From the NCBI GenBank assembly GCA_004376105.1, contig SOKA01000043.1, positions 1 to 38,725 of the forward strand: a stretch of DNA of 38,725 nt, in the 5' to 3' direction. Both the position numbers and the translations under genes were made by a program. Positions 6,740 through 24,340 of this stretch are shown here, one piece after another. The stretch's first letter is position 1. Each line of letters opens with the position of its first letter. Below the pieces are notes generated by a model. That model was not told the origin of the DNA. It did no database searches and saw only the letters and a program-made list of their open reading frames with translations. Source of the DNA: Dehalococcoidia bacterium. Lineage in GTDB: Bacteria > Chloroflexota > Dehalococcoidia > Dehalococcoidales > E44-bin46.

Positions 6740-8992
6740 CTATTTTTCCACCCACTTTTCAACCTGGAGCAAAGTAGTGTTGGTGCAGAATGCACCAGCT
6801 GGTGATTTGGCATCCTTGGTCAGTACATTGGCGCAGCCGCCGTGGTCTATCCCTTTTTCATCGGGGTCATACCAAGCACCCTGCGGGATATTCACTACAC
6901 CGGGCATTATCCTTTGTGTAACCTCAGCCGGGAGAACCGTTTGTCCCCGGTCATTATAGACTCGAACCAAGTCCCCGTTAGAGATGCCCCTAGCCTGGGC
7001 ATCAGCAGTATTTATCTGTACGCTTTGAGGAATCAGCTCTCTAAGCCAAGGTATATTGTCAAACTGACTGTGTGCCCGTCTACGAGCATGGGTGGTGACC
7101 AGTTGCAATGGATACTTCTTTGCCAGAGGGTCGTTCCGGCCCTCCCAGACCTCAATATACTTTGGAATGGGTGGAAGCTGAGGGTTATCCCAGTCGGCTA
7201 ACTCTTGAGAATATATTTCGATCTTCCCTGAAGGAGTAGGGAAAGGGTGATTCTCCAAGTCTTCGATTTGTTCCTTAAAAGCCACATAGGGCTCATCAGT
7301 TGGGAACCTATAAAGGGCCTTCTTCTTAAGCGTTTCGTAATCGGAACCTTCTCTGTCCTTGGCAAAGACCTCTCTAAATCCCTCTACTATGCCCTTTAGC
7401 CATTCCTCTTCCGTTTTATCGTTATAATCATCGATACCCATTGCCTTGGCTATTCCGCTGGCTATCTCGAGGTGAGACTTAGATTCATAAAGAGGTTCTA
7501 CAGACTTGTTTACCATACCATACCAGGGAGTAGCCCCACCACTGGTAAAATCATTTCTTTCAAAGTAGGTATTGACCGGGAGCAATATATCGGCATACTT
7601 GGCGGTAACTGTCATAAACTGCTCCTGAACAGCAATAAACTCTAGAGCCTTAAAAGCTTCTATGGCCTTGTTAGTATTTAGAACCTGGTTGACATAGTTA
7701 GTATTTGCCAGATAGAGAAGCTTGTAATCGGCAGGATAGCCACCGGCCTTGCCTTTTAATACGGCATCGGCTATCTGACCAACATTTATTTTTACACTGC
7801 TATTCGCTTTAGAGCCGCGTGCTTTAACGGTATCCCGGCGCGTCGGCCATCCCTCCTCAACCGGATTCCTGGGAGCACCCATCCGCCCCTTGGTGCGGGC
7901 TAGAAAAGGCATCTCCCCACCCCAGTACTCGCCACCCCATGACCTGCCGCCGGAACTTCCCCCGCTGATACCTATATTGCCGGTCATAGCCGATAAGGTA
8001 ATAGCAGCGCGGTGATACTGCTCCCCATAGGCAGTACGCCCCGGCGCGATGCCGGTAATCAAGGCTGCCGGCTTGGTGGTAGCGTATTCTCGGGCTAACC
8101 TTTCGATGGTAGCTGCCTTTGCGCCAGTAATGGCCTCAGCCCAGGCGGGCGTCTTTGGTTTACCGTCGTCAATGCCTAATACATAGTCCCTGAATTTCTC
8201 GAAACCTACGGTATATTTGTCGAGGAATGCTTGGTCCTGGAGGTTTTCTGTAATAATCACATAAGCCATGGCAATAAGCATGGCGGCATCAGTACAGGGG
8301 TAAATAGGTACCCATTCATCAGCGAAGGTGGCTGCGGAATCTGTATACCTTGGGTCGATAGCAATGATTCTGGCGCCTGCTTCCTTAGCCTGGGCCAAAT
8401 AGTATGGAGTATTGCAACGGTGGATTGAAACCGCCGGGTCCCACGCCCACATTATTATCAGTCGGGAGTTGAGAAGGTCGTCCCTGGTACTGTTAGTCAT
8501 ATGCGTTCCGTAGGTAGCGCATTCGGCAAAGACGCCACCCTCGTAGGAAAAAAAGCCCCAAAGTGGAGTATAACCTCCGGCCATGCAGAGTAATCTGTGC
8601 ATTGGTGCCATGGTATGGAGAGTATGTACATCAGCCAGTGAACAGAAATAGATAATAGATGCTGGGCCATAGGTATCTCTGACCCGTATTAGCTCTTTAG
8701 CCACCGTGGAAAACGCTTCGTCCCAGGAGATTCGCTCAAACTTGCCTTCGCCCCTGGCCCCCACCCTCTTCATGGGATACTTGAGGCGGTCTGGAGCATA
8801 CAGCCGCTGTCGGTAAGCACGGCATCTTAGACAAGCCCGGAATTGAGGCTCTTCTCCATCATCAGTTTCGATCCTAATAACTGCACCGTCTTTAACGTGA
8901 ACTCTGAGCAGGCACGCTCCCCCGCAGTGGCTATTACATACAGTGTAGATAACCGTTTCATTATTCTCTGTTTGTTGGTTATTTTCGCTCAT
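6740..8992 (-). CDS. DMSO-reductase-family (DmsA-like) molybdopterin oxidoreductase catalytic subunit, no Tat signal
   Basis: N-terminal CxxxCxxxC...C Fe-S motif (CNSHCGGAC...RACLRC), RLKYPMKRVGARGEGKFERISWDEA, putative Mo-ligand Ser in GFFSYEG (DmsA has GDYS), TPSGKIEIYS, domain IV AHSQ...PQGAW. Confidence 0.9.
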   Translation of the reverse strand: MSENNQQTENNETVIYTVCNSHCGGACLLRVHVKDGAVIRIETDDGEEPQFRACLRCRAYRQRLYAPDRLKYPMKRVGARGEGKFERISWDEAFSTVAKELIRVRDTYGPASIIYFCSLADVHTLHTMAPMHRLLCMAGGYTPLWGFFSYEGGVFAECATYGTHMTNSTRDDLLNSRLIIMWAWDPAVSIHRCNTPYYLAQAKEAGARIIAIDPRYTDSAATFADEWVPIYPCTDAAMLIAMAYVIITENLQDQAFLDKYTVGFEKFRDYVLGIDDGKPKTPAWAEAITGAKAATIERLAREYATTKPAALITGIAPGRTAYGEQYHRAAITLSAMTGNIGISGGSSGGRSWGGEYWGGEMPFLARTKGRMGAPRNPVEEGWPTRRDTVKARGSKANSSVKINVGQIADAVLKGKAGGYPADYKLLYLANTNYVNQVLNTNKAIEAFKALEFIAVQEQFMTVTAKYADILLPVNTYFERNDFTSGGATPWYGMVNKSVEPLYESKSHLEIASGIAKAMGIDDYNDKTEEEWLKGIVEGFREVFAKDREGSDYETLKKKALYRFPTDEPYVAFKEQIEDLENHPFPTPSGKIEIYSQELADWDNPQLPPIPKYIEVWEGRNDPLAKKYPLQLVTTHARRRAHSQFDNIPWLRELIPQSVQINTADAQARGISNGDLVRVYNDRGQTVLPAEVTQRIMPGVVNIPQGAWYDPDEKGIDHGGCANVLTKDAKSPAGAFCTNTTLLQVEKWVEK

Positions 8993-11025
8993 TTTTCCTC
9001 CGATGAAATTGCCTTGTCTGGCAGATGTTTCGGTTTAAATATAATGGAAGGCTTGGTGTTTGATGAATATGTAAAACCAACAGCCTCTTGAATATCTCCA
9101 TGTTTTACCTTCAGTTCTTCTATCGAACCCCAGTCCAAGGCTCGCATAATGCAGGCATCCACGCAGATAGGGTTTTTGTTCTCTTCCAGCCTGTCCAGAC
9201 AAAAGTCACATTTCTCCATCTTTGCCCCTTTTTCGGCTCCAAACTGAGGGACATCATAGGGACATACTCTGAGGCAAAGCCTCCCGGCACAGTTCACGCA
9301 CCTCTTGGCTTCGGTAATGGCCTGCTCCTCACCGTACCCCAGCGCTATCTCGTTAAAACTATGAACCCTTTCCTGTACAGAAAGAGTAGGCATTTCCTGC
9401 CGTTCGGCTTTAACAAGGTCAGCGGGTATCTCAACTTTAATATCTGAGGCTATGATGGGAACATCTATGTAGCTCTTTCCCAGAACCTCCCCCTTCAGAT
9501 AGCGGTCGATGTAGTATGCAGCCCTCTGTCCAGCCGCAATAGCGTCGATAACCCAGGCCGTTCCTGTAACTGCATCTCCCCCGGCAAAGACCCCAGGACG
9601 ACTGGTTTCCAGAGTTTCGGGGGCTACAGCGATGGTGCCACGTTTGGTTACCTTGATGTCGGTGCCCGCCAAGAGGGGGTTTAGCTCTGGAGATTGGCCG
9701 ATTGCGAATATAATCGTGTCTGCCGATAAGACATGCTCGGATCCTTCAATGGCCTCGAGGTGCAATTTCCCATTCTTATCAAACTCCATCCAGCGCAGTT
9801 TAAGGCACTCTACACCAGTAGCATATCCATTTTGGCACACAACTCTGTTGAAGGTGAGTGAGGGGTAAATGATTATTCCCTCCTTCCCAGCCTCAGCAAT
9901 GTCATAGTCTAGCGCTGGCATCTGCTCTCGGGACTCCAGGCATGCCACTTCCGCTTTTTGTGCTCCTAGGCGGAGAGCAACACGGGCACAATCAATGGCT
10001 ATACCGCCACCACCGAGCACTAGGACTCTCTGGCCCAGCTTTATCTTATTACCCAGATTTACGTCGCGCAGGAATGAGGTACCCACCAATACATTATCAG
10101 CTTCAGTGCCAGGAATAGATAGCTTATGGCCATTATGGGCCCCCACCGCAATGAAGATGGCTTTGTAACCCTGTCGAGATAGGTCATCCAAAGTCATCCC
10201 CTTACCTATAGGTGTGTTGGTCCTGATTTCTATCCCCAGACCTTTAAGATACTCAATGTCCCGGTTCAGGACTTCTCTCGGCAGGCGGTAATCAGGAATA
10301 CCGACCGCCATCATGCCTCCTATAACAGGAAGTGCTTCAAAGATTGTAACCTTATAGCCTTTTCTTATCAGATCGTAGGCTACGGAAAGCCCTGCCGGCC
10401 CTGAGCCAATAATGGCCACACCCTGCTCTTTTGTCCTGGGAAGAGGAGCCGTCTTTTCATCAACCACGGCATCATAGGCGAATCGCTTTAGGTCTCTAAT
10501 AGCCAGGGGCTTATCAACTTCACTTCTTTTGCACTCACTTTCACAAGGCTGAGAGCATACCCTGCCCAAAACGCCAGGCAAAGGTAGTTTCTCTCTCATC
10601 AAGTCTAGTGCCTCCTTAAACCTACCTTTACTAATTAGAGCGATATAGCCTGGTACATCCACATGAGCTGGGCAGGTTACCTCACAGGCAGACACATTTA
10701 TCTGGCCATTTCCGTTGGTGACAGTGATACCACAGCGTGCATTCTCCTGACACTTTTCCCTGTCCACTACGACTATGCCGTCCTCTTCTCTTCTGGTTAT
10801 CGCTTCGGCAGGACAAACCACGGCACAGAGAGGGTCCTCACAATGATAGCAGGCAGCGGAAAGGTAGGCCAAGAAAGGCTGAGGGAATTTCCCTTCTTCA
10901 AGTGGGGTTACCCTCCGCCAGTGAGCCGGCCCGGCGGGTATATCATGCCAGTCTTTACATGCTACGCAGCAGGTAAAGCACCCGATACACCTAGTCTGGT
11001 CGAAATAAAAGCCTGTCTGCATCAC
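8989..11025 (-). CDS. DmsB-like 4Fe-4S subunit with an internally inserted GltD/NfnB-type FAD/NAD(P) oxidoreductase module
   Basis: DmsB N-half (CIGCFTCCVACK; CYHCEDPLCAVVCP), then a GltD module (CPAHVDVPGY, LGRVCSQPCESEC, IIGSGPAG, VLGGGGIAIDCAR, VFAGGD), then the DmsB C-half (CLRVCPY, KCDFC, PICVDAC). 4-nt overlap with the dmsA-like gene. Confidence 0.88.
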   Translation of the reverse strand: MMQTGFYFDQTRCIGCFTCCVACKDWHDIPAGPAHWRRVTPLEEGKFPQPFLAYLSAACYHCEDPLCAVVCPAEAITRREEDGIVVVDREKCQENARCGITVTNGNGQINVSACEVTCPAHVDVPGYIALISKGRFKEALDLMREKLPLPGVLGRVCSQPCESECKRSEVDKPLAIRDLKRFAYDAVVDEKTAPLPRTKEQGVAIIGSGPAGLSVAYDLIRKGYKVTIFEALPVIGGMMAVGIPDYRLPREVLNRDIEYLKGLGIEIRTNTPIGKGMTLDDLSRQGYKAIFIAVGAHNGHKLSIPGTEADNVLVGTSFLRDVNLGNKIKLGQRVLVLGGGGIAIDCARVALRLGAQKAEVACLESREQMPALDYDIAEAGKEGIIIYPSLTFNRVVCQNGYATGVECLKLRWMEFDKNGKLHLEAIEGSEHVLSADTIIFAIGQSPELNPLLAGTDIKVTKRGTIAVAPETLETSRPGVFAGGDAVTGTAWVIDAIAAGQRAAYYIDRYLKGEVLGKSYIDVPIIASDIKVEIPADLVKAERQEMPTLSVQERVHSFNEIALGYGEEQAITEAKRCVNCAGRLCLRVCPYDVPQFGAEKGAKMEKCDFCLDRLEENKNPICVDACIMRALDWGSIEELKVKHGDIQEAVGFTYSSNTKPSIIFKPKHLPDKAISSEEK

Positions 11026-11084: not shown

Positions 11085-11537
11085 TTATTGGTTCGCCCCT
11101 TCACCTACAGTAGGGAATCCTTCTAGCTTCCATCCAATACACCCGCCCGTCATATTATAGACTTCCCAGAAATCAAGCTCCTCCATTATAGCTAAAGCGT
11201 TCCAGCCAGGACCATCACCACATGCGGAAACAGAATAAATGAGATACGCCTTATTCTTATCCAGCTGGTTAAGCTCATCCCTGAAAGTTTCAGAATCCAA
11301 ATCTATGTTGATAGCATTTTCTAAATGCTCATAGGCAAATTCTTCCGGGGTTCGCAGATCAATAATGACAAAATCGGGATTAACCTGGTTTTCCTGGACT
11401 AAGGTAAACGCCTCTTGTGGGGTAACATTTTCAATTATCTGGGCTTTGCCAATACAACCACCAGCTAACACAGCTACAATAACCAGCGATACCGAGAGCA
11501 CCAACATCACTAATTTTTTTAGACTCTTTTTTGCCAA
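11085..11537 (-). CDS. Rhodanese-like domain protein, probable lipoprotein (copy 1)
   Basis: Signal peptide ending LAGGC; IIDLRTPEEFAYEHLENAINID; YNMTGG...W. Start moved to TTG 11537 by alignment with the paralog and the AAGGGGGTGA RBS. Confidence 0.82.
   Translation of the reverse strand: MAKKSLKKLVMLVLSVSLVIVAVLAGGCIGKAQIIENVTPQEAFTLVQENQVNPDFVIIDLRTPEEFAYEHLENAINIDLDSETFRDELNQLDKNKAYLIYSVSACGDGPGWNALAIMEELDFWEVYNMTGGCIGWKLEGFPTVGEGANQ
11464..11536 (-). repeat. 73-bp perfect inverted repeat shared with 23877-23949 (5' ends of the rhodanese paralogs)
   Basis: Base-by-base comparison. A second identical 48-bp block (GATTCTGAAAC...GAATAAG) is also present in both genes. Confidence 0.9.
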
Positions 11538-11580
11538 GGTTATCACCCCCTTTCTTTTCAATTATATTCCGGCGTGCTTG

Positions 11581-12504
11581 TTAATCAGCCCTCCCTATTT
11601 CCAGCATCTTGTCCACAGCCAATTTTGCCTTGAGACGAATCTCTTCAGGAACCTTCACCTCAGGAGACATCTCCTCCAGAGACCACAGTATCTTTTCTAG
11701 GGTGATTCGTTTCATATTAGGGCAGACTGCTTGCTCAGAGGCAGGAATAAATTCCTTGCCCGGGTTTTCCTTTTTAAGCCTATATATAATCCCAATCTCT
11801 GTGCCCACAACTATCTCTTTAGCTTCTGTCTTCTGGGCGAACTTGATCATCCCGCTGGTGCTCAATGCCTCATCAGCAAGAGCAATCACCTCGGGCCTAC
11901 ATTCCGGGTGAACTATTATTTTGGCTTTTGGGTATTCTTGTTTCAGCCTGGTTATTTCCTGTGGCAGTATTCTGGCATGAGTGGGGCAATACCCAGGCCA
12001 CAGTATCATCTTCTTATTGGTCTTGGTTGAGATGTAATTACCCAGGTACTGGTCAGGAACAAATAGTATCTCATTGGCATCAAGACTTTCGATGACCTTG
12101 AGTGCATTGGCCGAGGTGCAGCAAATATCTGATTCTGCCTTAACCTCAGCCGAGGAGTTGACATAGCAAACTACGGTAGCATTTGAGAGCTCCTTTTTCC
12201 TCTCTCTGAGTTTATCGGCAGTAACCATATCGGCCATAGGGCAGCCGGCATTTATATCCGGAAGTAAGACTATCTTATCCGGGCAGAGGATAGAGGCTGT
12301 TTCTGCCATGAAATGAACCCCACAAAATACAATTACCTCGGCATCTGTCTTGGCAGCGTTTTGGCTCAAGCCTAAAGAATCACCGACAAAATCAGCTATG
12401 TCTTGGACTTCGCCCAATTGGTAGTTATGGGCGAGGATAACAGCCCCCCTTGTTTTCTTGAGGCTTAAAATTTTCCCAGTTAGTTCGACATGCTTATTTT
12501 CCAT
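11581..12504 (-). CDS. nadA: Quinolinate synthase
   Basis: ILAHNYQ, FCGVHFMAETA, AGCPMA, YVNSSA, HPEC, GTEIG, CPNMK. Confidence 0.97.
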   Translation of the reverse strand: MENKHVELTGKILSLKKTRGAVILAHNYQLGEVQDIADFVGDSLGLSQNAAKTDAEVIVFCGVHFMAETASILCPDKIVLLPDINAGCPMADMVTADKLRERKKELSNATVVCYVNSSAEVKAESDICCTSANALKVIESLDANEILFVPDQYLGNYISTKTNKKMILWPGYCPTHARILPQEITRLKQEYPKAKIIVHPECRPEVIALADEALSTSGMIKFAQKTEAKEIVVGTEIGIIYRLKKENPGKEFIPASEQAVCPNMKRITLEKILWSLEEMSPEVKVPEEIRLKAKLAVDKMLEIGRAD

Positions 12505-12510
12505 CAGTAA

Positions 12511-12960
12511 CTATCCTCCAGCCCTCTCCAATACCCTTATTGTGTCCCCCACCTTCACCAATCCCCCCCTGATTACCTTGGCAAATACTCCCTCTTTGGG
12601 CATGATGCACTTGCCTATCTGACGATATATGGCACATCCGATATGGCACTCTTTGCCAATTTGGGTGAGTTCCAAGACAATCTCTTCTTCAATACGTATG
12701 TGTGTGCCAACAGGAAGCGAGACCAATTCTATCCCCTCAGTGGTAAGATTTTCGGCGAAATCCCCAGGGCCTACATCAAAGCCCAGACCTCGCATCTTGT
12801 TGATGCTTTCAGTTGCCAACAGGCTTACTTGACGATGGGTACAGCAATCGGCATGAGCATCACCAACAAGACCATAATCGTCCTTAAGGACACCTTTAGC
12901 TACAGGTTTCTTCTTAGTACCTTTTTTCTTGCTCTTACAGACGGCAATTATTTTAGCCAT
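12511..12960 (-). CDS. MOSC domain protein
   Basis: GLVGDAHA, RQVSLL, PGDFAENLTT, TQIGKECHIGCAI...CIMPKEGVFAKV. Confidence 0.92.
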   Translation of the reverse strand: MAKIIAVCKSKKKGTKKKPVAKGVLKDDYGLVGDAHADCCTHRQVSLLATESINKMRGLGFDVGPGDFAENLTTEGIELVSLPVGTHIRIEEEIVLELTQIGKECHIGCAIYRQIGKCIMPKEGVFAKVIRGGLVKVGDTIRVLERAGG

Positions 12961-13021
12961 GTCATCATTACTCCAACCAGCCAGTCAAATGCTTTTCTGG
13001 CGCTTTATCGAAGGCGTCTTT

Positions 13022-13082
13022 TAGCCTCATCAGGCTAGGTTTTACCTGGCGACTAGGAGCTAATAGCTCCTAGTTTCGGCTA
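13022..13082 (-). ncRNA. Type II hammerhead ribozyme; predicted cleavage after GUC, between 13051 and 13050
   Basis: Minus strand: UAGCC-GAAA-CUAGGAGC-UAUUA-GCUCCUAG-UC^-GCCAGGU-AAA-ACCUAGC-CUGAUGA-GGCUA. All core nucleotides are present with exact spacing. Stem II (UAGCC/GGCUA) is the open stem, stem III is a perfect hairpin, and stem I has one C-A mismatch. Confidence 0.93.
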
Positions 13083-13140
13083 CCCCGGGTCTTTGTTCCT
13101 AGACCTCTTTATTTATGATTTTCTTCTTCATTCACTTTAC

Positions 13141-13335
13141 TCATCCCCCTGCTATCACTGGGATTAATGTTACTTTATCCCCTCTCCTTAATCTTCTGTC
13201 CTTTATCGCATCTGGATAGAAAATCTCCCCACTCACCTCCAGCAGGATGGGAGCAGAGGAAAGCTGGAGTTCATCCATAAGCTCCTTTATTGTCTTATCT
13301 TCCTTGACCTCTATCTCCTCAATGCCCACTTTCAT
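13141..13335 (-). CDS. ThiS/MoaD-family ubiquitin-like sulfur carrier
   Basis: 64 aa, ending GDKVTLIPVIAGG. Start placed at ATG 13335, which overlaps the upstream stop (ATGA). Confidence 0.88.
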   Translation of the reverse strand: MKVGIEEIEVKEDKTIKELMDELQLSSAPILLEVSGEIFYPDAIKDRRLRRGDKVTLIPVIAGG

Positions 13336-14132
13336 TTTCCATGTAAACTGTCTAAGATTCTGGCATGCTGCCCACAAAGCTCATATCCGCTCCCAAGCTG
13401 AGCAAAGATGAGTTCCTCTTGCCAGTGTGCATTATAAAGTCTACAGCCTTTATCCTTGCAAAAGGGGTCGCCGACAAGATAGTAGAAAAGCGCCTGCATT
13501 GCATACCCCTTCACAACCTCGGTCAGCCGCTCATCCTCGTAATCGATGAAACTCGCCTTCAATCTCTCTTTGAGTTCCAATAGGTCCTTTCCCAGCATCT
13601 CGTACTGTTGCTTAACAAGATAGTACTCCCTCGGCTTGGCCGGTGCCTCTACGAGCCCTGTGGTTGAGATAACCGAGGGGACACCATACACGCTTGTCCT
13701 GGCGTGGTACCGTTTGTCGCTCTCCTCCCAAGTGGCAAACAAACGGTTGGTAAAGAAGATGTGAACAAACCCAAGACAACGCTCCTCCCGTGCTACGAGC
13801 TCCGAAAAGACCCTTTGAAGTTGAAACCCGTCGTAGACGACTCCGAAGGCCTTTGTTTTTCCCAGAATTCTTCTTTTTTCATACTGGACCTCGCCATAGA
13901 GAGGTTCCGGCTCGGGTGCTATCTTTCTGCTCGCATCTCGAATCTTGATAGATGCGAGCTTTCTTGCATAATCTGGACTCTTCTCTAGCCGAAAAGCAAA
14001 GGGATTCCCCCTCACCTTGACTTGTACTTTCTTCAGCTTCTCTCTTAAATATCCAGCGATCTCCCCTATATCTAGCGTCTCAACCGCACCTTCATCGTAG
14101 ACGAGAACCTTCTCTATCCTGCGAACTTTCAT
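13332..14132 (-). CDS. Hypothetical protein resembling the DUF6775 putative metallopeptidase (archaemetzincin-like)
   Basis: C-terminal [20 protein letters not shown] and YHAR...[17 protein letters not shown], recalled from this family. No HExxH motif. ATGA overlaps on both sides. Confidence 0.6.
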
Positions 14133-23312: not shown

Positions 23313-23756
23313 TTATATGTAGTACATCACCTCGTTAGGCCGCTCTTTCCTTTTTTGTCGCTCGACCAAATCCTGCAAGGTTGTTGACTCCAAAACCCCA
23401 TTCACTGCCTTTTTCAGCTCACCCCAGATGTCCCGGGTAACACATAGTTCAGAGCGAGTACATATCCCTGGGTTATTAACGCACTCCACCGGAGCAATTG
23501 AGCCCTCAAGAAGCTGAATGACTACGCTCAGCCTTACCTCCTCAGGAGGCTTGGCTAACGAAACTCCACCCTTGGCGCCTCGAGTGCTCCGGACTATACC
23601 CCCAGCTATGAGGGGAGCGATCAAATGCTCTAGATACCATGCTGAAATCTGCTGCCTTTGGGCAATATCTTTTAATAGAACCGGTCCCTCTCCCTGGTGA
23701 AGGGCTAAGTCCAAGAGTGCTCTAGTTCCATACCGTCCTTTAGTAGAAAGTTTCAT
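23313..23756 (-). CDS. Rrf2-family transcriptional regulator (IscR/CymR-like, three Cys)
   Basis: MKLSTKGRYG, YLEHL, STRGAKGG, ECV...ICTRSELC. Confidence 0.93.
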   Translation of the reverse strand: MKLSTKGRYGTRALLDLALHQGEGPVLLKDIAQRQQISAWYLEHLIAPLIAGGIVRSTRGAKGGVSLAKPPEEVRLSVVIQLLEGSIAPVECVNNPGICTRSELCVTRDIWGELKKAVNGVLESTTLQDLVERQKRKERPNEVMYYI

Positions 23757-23875: not shown

Positions 23876-24340
23876 ATGGCAAAAAAGAGTCTAAAAAAAT
23901 TAGTGATGTTGGTGCTCTCGGTATCGCTGGTTATTGTAGCTGTGTTAGCCGGTGGCTGCGTTGGCAAAGAAATCGAGACTCCAATTCAAGAAACCCCGAA
24001 CCAAATAATTGAAGGTATCACTACACAAGAGGCATTTAGCTTAATACAGGAAAACCAGAATAATCCCGATTTTGTCATTATTGATCTGCGATGGCCAAAA
24101 TTATTTGCCAATGGGCATATAGAAAATGCTATCAACATAGATATCGATTCTGAAACTTTCAGGGATGAGCTTAACCAGCTGGATAAGAATAAGACGTATC
24201 TCATTTATACCAGTTGCTCATGTGGAGGTATCGGCTGGAAAGCTTTACGTATAATGGAAGAGCTTAATTTCAGGGAAGTCTATAATATGTGGAGCGGGTT
24301 GGATCGATGGAAGGAGGAAGGATTACCTACCACAAAATAG
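23876..24340 (+). CDS. Rhodanese-like domain protein, probable lipoprotein (copy 2)
   Basis: Same signal peptide as copy 1; IIDLR...GHIENAINID; LIYTSCSCGG; YNMWSGLDRWKEEGLP. Confidence 0.85.
   Translation: MAKKSLKKLVMLVLSVSLVIVAVLAGGCVGKEIETPIQETPNQIIEGITTQEAFSLIQENQNNPDFVIIDLRWPKLFANGHIENAINIDIDSETFRDELNQLDKNKTYLIYTSCSCGGIGWKALRIMEELNFREVYNMWSGLDRWKEEGLPTTK

Follow-up and report, generated by a model that had tools for sequence, protein, structure and literature searches.

A type II hammerhead ribozyme motif of Dehalococcoidales located between genes of cellular metal and cofactor operons

The contig SOKA01000043.1 of a Dehalococcoidia bacterium (GenBank assembly GCA_004376105.1; Dehalococcoidales, E44-bin46), analysed here as one whole stretch of 38,725 nucleotides (nt) and referred to below as the window, raises the question of what a hammerhead ribozyme motif is doing between two metabolic genes, a thiS-like gene and a MOSC-domain gene. 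The question is of interest beyond this genome, as bacterial hammerheads still await a settled function and the known examples mostly lie near phage genes or hypothetical genes of varying identity, according to two studies (PMC3088659, PMC8782182). The answer that we favour, with moderate confidence, is that the motif represents a Dehalococcoidales type II hammerhead that would act as a predicted self-cleaving element between cistrons of cellular operons, and that a transcript of the window would be cut between positions 13051 and 13050.

The motif comprises 61 nt (13022..13082, minus strand) and lies in the 180-nt intergenic gap between the two genes. Read on the minus strand from 13082 to 13022, the sequence is UAGCC-GAAA-CUAGGAGCU-AUU-AGCUCCUAG-U-C/GCCAGGU-AAA-ACCUAGC-CUGAUGA-GGCUA, where the slash marks the predicted cut. 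It begins with the 5' strand of stem II, UAGCC (13078..13082), whose open end defines type II, followed by the core nucleotides G12 A13 A14 (13075..13077) and by the stem III hairpin (13052..13074), in which the pair A15.1-U16.1 (13074/13052) is extended by nine further pairs and closed by the loop AUU. C17 occupies position 13051, and hammerhead numbering places the predicted scissile bond directly 3' of it. The stem I hairpin (13034..13050) then pairs GCCAGGU with ACCUAGC (13050-13044 with 13040-13034) across the loop AAA, with a C·A mismatch at 13048/13036, and the core heptamer CUGAUGA (C3 to A9, with N7 = U; 13027..13033) and the 3' strand of stem II, GGCUA (13022..13026), complete the motif. 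Stems III and II have 10 and 5 base pairs (bp), respectively, and stem I has seven positions including the mismatch. Every nucleotide required of a type II core (C3 U4 G5 A6 N7 G8 A9, G12 A13 A14, A15.1-U16.1, H17) is present, and the order II5'-GAAA-III hairpin-C17-I hairpin-CUGAUGA-II3' confirms the type II permutation. A preliminary description of this DNA, made from its letters without database searches, had proposed a complete type II hammerhead in the gap; this identification stands, with the qualification of one mismatch in stem I, and the cut position that it predicted follows from the hammerhead numbering.

A scan of the 978-kb genome with our own patterns for the three hammerhead topologies returned the window site as the sole strong match, with 6, 5 and 10 pairs in stems I, II and III; two marginal matches were found elsewhere, and each of five shuffles of the genome gave zero to two marginal matches. 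The 76-nt stretch around the motif folds with a z-score of −3.99. A covariance model of our own (termed R1) scored the window at 90.5 bits (E 1e-22) over the span 13095..13014, which is the tenth-best score among 87 loci, the best being 94.8 bits. At the level of sequence, the motif is thus confirmed as a genuine and complete type II hammerhead and not a chance motif.

The distribution of the element was traced in several collections. Comparison of the 180-nt gap with 41 related genomes by blastn gave significant matches that cover the hammerhead part only and come from two other families of the order, with 89% and 84% identity. A 20-base pattern, allowing up to two mismatches, matched seven of 363 genomes of the order (one for a reversed control pattern), and a covariance model built from seven genome copies found the element in 10 of 151. 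Among 185,579 species genomes the pattern occurred at six loci, titled Dehalococcoidales, Dehalococcoidia or Chloroflexi metagenome-assembled genomes (MAGs), and all six coincide in coordinates with the matches in genomes of the order. Metagenomes contributed 111 matching stretches, 80 of which make up the metagenome part of a family that counts 87 loci in all and 77 different core sequences; these totals include ten low-scoring metagenome matches. All named family loci derive from Dehalococcoidales/Chloroflexi MAGs. The Rfam model for type II hammerheads (RF02276) left the window site unlisted in a scan of the window at the gathering score, in a scan of 301 nt at E ≤ 10 and in a genome-wide search. 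The literature that was searched contained no description of the family, although members could figure in papers behind subscription or in the alignments that supplement PMC3088659 (Dataset S1). Judged by model score and distribution, the window element is a member of an apparently Dehalococcoidales-specific and previously uncatalogued type II hammerhead subfamily that is invisible to Rfam.

Family members of the R1 type share a stem III of 9-10 bp, a stem I of 6-7 bp and a short, purine-rich loop I, traits to which the window copy conforms, and position 17 is C or U throughout the family. In the model alignment of the 87 sequences, 91.3% of the paired cells are standard pairs, compared with 20-50% when the 3' partners are slid. 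Changes on both sides occur in 12 of 22 pairs; double-change cells number 125, where shuffles give 42.5, and none of 500 shuffles reached the observed value. In stem III, eight of the ten pairs show changes on both sides. Among 85 distinct sequences of the family, pairs 10.1-11.1 and 10.2-11.2 never vary, pair 10.3-11.3 is GC in 66 and GU in 19, and pair 10.4-11.4 is AU in 42, GC in 15, CG in two, UA in two, GU in three and unpaired in 19; the fifth pair of stem II is not conserved. Pair 1.3-2.3 of stem I is UA in 57, CG in 14, UG in 12, AU in one and unpaired in one, the window. An alignment of 44 loci with long flanks (MAFFT) gave, when folded de novo with RNAalifold, exactly the three hammerhead stems; the same analysis showed no conserved hairpin near the stop codon of the gene upstream, from which a linker of 0 to about 22 nt leads to the ribozyme. 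In 76 of the 87 loci the hammerhead junction lies within 1 kcal/mol of the minimum free energy (MFE). The three predicted helices around the core are therefore backed by covariation, and the covariation in relatives that the preliminary description suggested looking for extends across the 87-locus family.

What surrounds the element in the family bears directly on its possible role. The neighbouring genes were classified by motif rules with Pfam checks on representatives, which confirmed CsoR, YHS, SHOCT, MOSC, FdhD and P-type ATPases. Upstream, a gene for a small Cys-rich protein of 51-54 amino acids (aa) is found in 47 of the 87 loci and a YHS-domain gene in 18. The small gene ends 0-22 nt ahead of the ribozyme, and we define as the module of this family a Cys or YHS gene that ends 0-45 nt upstream of the hammerhead and is followed by one of a recurrent set of genes. 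This downstream gene is copA (a P1B-type ATPase with HMA domains) in 46-50 loci, a MOSC gene in 7-8, a YHS gene in 5-6 and a SHOCT membrane protein gene in four; in G036, for instance, the operon runs from a CsoR-type repressor through the small gene, YHS and the hammerhead to CopA. These recurrent neighbours place the hammerhead in cellular operons for metals and cofactors, with one copy per operon. The small protein carries the conserved motifs LC-x4-CCP and EIGEKDN-x-C (e.g. L055 and L139:2087-2242, minus strand) and ends in ...VEIGEKDNxCVLTKSEWExLKQKILNKEI. It matches no Pfam or NCBIfam family, and its 292 homologue clusters are all annotated as 'hypothetical protein', those with named organisms being from Dehalococcoidia. 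Since it always occurs within Dehalococcoidia copper or MOSC operons, the protein may be metal-binding or regulatory.

The position of the start codon divides the copA loci. In 26 of them (e.g. L025, L030-L034, L041, L045-L048) the start codon follows 6-11 nt after ...CUGANGAGG, and the Shine-Dalgarno (SD) sequence GGAGG is formed by N7-G8-A9-G10.1-G10.2, that is, by the core together with stem II; another SD-like motif is found in only one of the 26. N7 is G in 22 of these loci and A in four, and never U or C. In a further 24 copA loci the distance to the start is 20-22 nt; here N7 is a U (14 loci) or C (six), less often G or A (two each), and a separate GGAGG is present in 23. These counts are not phylogenetically independent, and a Fisher test on them overstates the significance. 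The window copy is outside the type with an SD in its core: its N7 is U, and the MOSC gene has its own GGAG at 12974-12971, 48 nt past the 3' end of the motif at 13022, with the start codon 61 nt beyond that end (13022 to 12960), a spacing also seen in L055 and L097.

That the motif is a product of chance, or the footprint of a phage or mobile element, might be suspected because hammerheads are often phage-linked, as described in PMC3088659, and because the search pattern matched one viral contig twice, while ten metagenome matches with low scores (35-60 bits) adjoin unrelated small open reading frames (ORFs) without Pfam hits. We consider this explanation very unlikely, since the element occurs in one copy per genome at a conserved operon position and with covarying stems, and since no phage or transposase family is present among the 19 genes that surround it in the window, in agreement with the lack of phage context noted in the preliminary description. 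The viral copies, moreover, are short-stem variants. They lie on an IMG/VR contig (L153/L154), are 51-52 nt long and are both followed by the same tail sequence; a pair of this kind is characteristic of phage hammerheads that occur in clusters, and stands apart from the operon subfamily.

According to the mechanism that we propose for the intercistronic self-cleaver, the three-way junction would fold during transcription of the operon and cleave 3' of C17. Cleavage would leave the upstream RNA with stem III, a 10-bp hairpin, at its 3' end, carrying a 2',3'-cyclic phosphate, and the other product with a 5'-OH right at the stem I hairpin; the short stem II (3-5 bp) would be expected to dissociate afterwards. 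Both products would thus be capped by hairpins, a peculiarity of the type II topology, and this would allow the two halves of an operon to differ in stability and translation. Where the core and stem II provide the sole SD, as in about half of the copA loci, folding and cleavage would in addition gate the access of ribosomes. In the window, the ribozyme would lie on a read-through transcript from thiS into the MOSC, nadA, rhodanese and molybdenum (Mo) enzyme genes and would still cut, possibly less efficiently as a result of the C·A mismatch in stem I.

A number of observations weigh against this reading, with regard both to the family and to the window copy. When given the 81 nt around the site, RF02276 (Hammerhead_II) aligned them over the full length and in the right register, with a score of 18.1 bits (E 0.078) that falls well short of Rfam's cut-off of 37 bits, and none of 20 family loci tested passed the Rfam gathering threshold. 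Because the model aligns the site once the 81 nt are supplied, we attribute the missing Rfam hits to filter and threshold limits rather than to absence of the motif, and the low score to the 8-nt loop I and the pairing 3' tail that the model expects. Loop I of the window consists of AAA, 3 nt (5 if the closing U-A pair opens), and the tail AAAAGACGCC contains no complement to it. With a loop of only 3 nt, the usual pseudoknot, in which loop I pairs with the 3' tail, cannot form, and no substitute tertiary contact was identified, the flanks showing no complement of loop I by eye. In PMC3088659, this pseudoknot is described for the majority, not all, of type II hammerheads, and the contact as critical for fast cleavage at 0.5 mM Mg2+ in the type II ribozymes tested. 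The search design is a further point: as the core and some of stems I and II were prescribed by the pattern, invariance at these positions (e.g. G12 A13 A14) is uninformative, and the evidence for covariation comes from stem III, pair 1.3-2.3 and pairs 10.3 and 10.4.

The locus itself adds to these points. The upstream neighbour is a ThiS-family gene (13141..13377, minus strand; ending ...IPVIAGG; Pfam PF02597, E 1.6e-08), and the Cys or YHS gene that the module requires in intact form is absent there; a tblastn search of the 93%-complete assembly likewise revealed no small-Cys, YHS, CopA, CsoR or SHOCT gene. Downstream, the same-strand MOSC gene (12511..12960, minus; Pfam PF03473, NCBIfam MoaC/MOSC C-terminal part) belongs to the recurrent set, so that the window has this half of the module. 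Alignment of the MOSC-type loci with MAFFT (L055, L097, L062, L024, L103, L101 and L065) showed that homology to the window sets in within the final 10 codons of the small gene, at a point directly past the thiS stop codon. What is left is a stretch encoding MKKKIINKEV*, the last 10 codons and stop (13099..13131, minus), which compares with ...KEKIINKEV* at the end of the intact small gene in L055. As homology starts inside the small gene and adjoins the thiS stop, the junction between thiS and the hammerhead is a deletion scar; by this alignment, the small gene of the window, together with whatever promoter preceded it, is deleted down to a 33-nt remnant.

This history also bears on the purpose that the preliminary description had assigned to the ribozyme, namely to split one transcript into a sulfur-supply half (cys/isc/thi) and a client half (MOSC, nadA, rhodanese, Mo enzyme). 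Its observations on the operon are borne out: 19 ORFs, from Rrf2 (23313-23756) to a DmsA-like gene (6740-8992), all lie on the minus strand, and the gap between thiS and MOSC contains no minus-strand promoter-like or terminator-like site by consensus, so that a read-through transcript would be cut between these two genes. G321, moreover, has the similar order IscS-like gene, small gene, hammerhead, MOSC, NadA. The proposed purpose itself is not supported, as comparison shows a module of small gene, hammerhead and downstream gene and the family is consistently partnered by the small Cys gene or by copper genes, not by sulfur-supply genes, as the thiS junction is a scar and thiS is directly upstream in none of the other 86 loci, and as searches of same-family genomes gave no hammerhead. 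We therefore regard a ribozyme placed for this division as unlikely.

Comparison with relatives revealed an uneven distribution of the element. Among genomes of the same family, the pattern matched none of nine and the covariance model none of seven. Three of them (G006, G004 and G001, with the loci L139-L141) have the small gene, about 140 nt of spacer and the MOSC gene without a hammerhead, the best model score there being 9.2 bits with filters off; FdhD and NadA follow MOSC in G006 and G004, and L141 ends inside MOSC. In G009, MOSC directly follows a Mo-enzyme gene. The element is present at the junction of small gene and MOSC in more distant Dehalococcoidales (G013, G321 and six metagenome loci). 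The preliminary description had stated that absence from the syntenic position in relatives would refute a role in operon processing; the same-family genomes show such absence and the more distant relatives do not, so that this objection holds in part. Degenerate copies also occur. The locus G140:C40 (L151) is 99-100% identical to the window (11504-13097) from the middle of MOSC through NadA, but identity falls to 64-86% in the hammerhead and the 5' half of MOSC; its upstream gene is a different one, and its hammerhead copy is degenerate and poorly paired (43 bits); this pattern points to recombination or mosaicism with a boundary inside MOSC, or to a chimeric assembly. In G132, the copy before copA (L147, G132:C43:6913-6994) has the core CUAAGGA, with G5 changed to A and the AGGAG kept, and a second copy (L152, G132:C6) has the core UUGAUGA, with C3 changed to U, and eroded stems. 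The degenerate copy of G140:C40 and the core mutant of G132:C43 imply that ribozyme activity is dispensable in some lineages.

The spacers without a hammerhead in the same-family genomes have a feature of their own: L139 and L140 share the start ...AAAGCxxxTAGTTAAGC..., and these sequences of about 140 nt could represent another RNA element.

How far the window copy has changed can be narrowed to a single nucleotide, the C at 13048, all other stem bases following the consensus. It is the only one of the 85 sequences in which position 1.3-2.3 is unpaired, and this C places the hammerhead fold 2.1 kcal/mol above the MFE. DNA contigs served for the variants at 13048 and 13082 and for the strain-level arrangement only; several of their joints (e.g. 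12595->13375, in one contig) match at 85% likeness and may derive from other organisms. Nearly all contigs matching the locus carry U at 13048; as judged from depths, these appear to include a 97%-identical contig spanning 12939-13172, while a 95%-identical contig that spans MOSC, hammerhead, thiS and DUF6775 seems to keep C. The window copy is thus core-intact, polymorphic among strains and, by predicted folding energy, slightly destabilised, and it may be a weakened leftover in this genome. Such a leftover would be a decaying passenger, inherited with the module of small gene, hammerhead and MOSC and without a selected role after the small gene was lost, perhaps with weak and inconsequential cleavage. 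The remnant that adjoins the hammerhead, the unpaired position and suboptimal fold, the degenerate or mutated copies in G140:C40, a nearly identical locus, and in G132, and the same-family genomes that do without the element all fit this explanation. Decay is less readily reconciled with a copy in which all core nucleotides are intact, which is one substitution away from the consensus and which scores close to the best family member with R1; C·A may also plausibly mark the passage between U-A and C-G, the two common states, and the arrangement thiS-hammerhead-MOSC is retained on the 95%-identical strain contig. We give the passenger explanation a real but minor chance, and continue to prefer an intercistronic self-cleaver.

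Joined with the SD findings, the intercistronic self-cleaver can be extended to a broader proposal that is tentative and, in our estimate, doubtful as a whole: the first natural self-cleaving ribozyme to serve as operon insulator and translation gate. It would cut csoR or small-gene transcripts from copA or MOSC messages and leave both products capped by hairpins, its core would double as the SD in about half of the copA operons, and in the window a 17-kb transcript of sulfur, Fe-S and cofactor genes would be processed without an RNase.

Two features of the surrounding cluster are recorded here. Two rhodanese paralogues (11110-11536 and 23877-24330; 71% aa identity) are arranged as inverted repeats whose arms, 93-225 nt long, show 79-96% complementarity; they flank a 12.3-kb block from Rrf2 to NadA, in which the hammerhead lies, and could allow the cluster as a whole to invert. 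The gene at 8989-11025 (minus strand), located between those for the rhodanese and the DmsA-like protein, encodes a fusion of a DmsB-like 4Fe-4S part with a GltD-like NAD(P)-binding part rather than a plain DmsB.

The significance of these results lies mainly at the level of the family, in its fixed operon position, the SD within the core and the natural on/off variants, and less in the possibly vestigial window copy. A subfamily that keeps a fixed place in operons of known function, here copper export and molybdenum-cofactor/NAD genes, could help to show what bacterial hammerheads do, and its natural variants (core mutants, SD inside or outside the core, sister genomes without the element) provide a defined and testable system. 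For genome annotation, it is relevant that a type II variant lacking the pseudoknot escapes current models.

Compared with the type II hammerheads of RF02276, the subfamily has the same catalytic core (CUGANGA, GAA, A15.1-U16.1, H17) and is permuted in the same way, stems I and III being capped by hairpins and the short stem II left open (PMC3088659). It differs in form, with a purine-rich loop I of 3-5 nt and a long stem III (9-10 bp), and in its context of cellular metal/cofactor operons instead of prophages. Like the glmS ribozyme, a self-cleaving RNA in a bacterial mRNA leader whose 5'-OH product alters the fate of the mRNA, it would be a self-cleaving RNA within an mRNA (predicted here); glmS depends on a ligand and has a different fold, whereas no ligand-binding element is evident here. 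RiboJ-type insulators and hammerhead devices that mask the ribosome binding site are synthetic, are derived from types I and III and hide the SD in an extended stem. These devices, for which masking of the ribosome binding site by a hammerhead is covered in a review (PMC12192606), resemble the subfamily in that the ribozyme is placed just upstream of the start codon and that cleavage detaches the RNA ahead of it, leaving a hairpin at the new 5' end and an accessible SD. The present case would be a natural one, in which the SD is formed by N7 to 10.2, and it concerns the 26 copA loci and not the window; the literature searched contained no natural precedent for a hammerhead that masks a ribosome binding site. 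The closest natural counterparts are phage hammerheads and those of Desulfovibrio vulgaris, where three type II hammerheads cleave in vivo (PMC8782182); processing of polycistronic RNA has been proposed for clustered phage hammerheads (PMC3088659). They share with the subfamily the intergenic site among co-directional genes and the proposed cutting of long transcripts into pieces of gene length. As described in both papers, however, they lie near phage-like or hypothetical genes of varying identity, whereas the subfamily occurs as a single copy beside recurrent neighbours.

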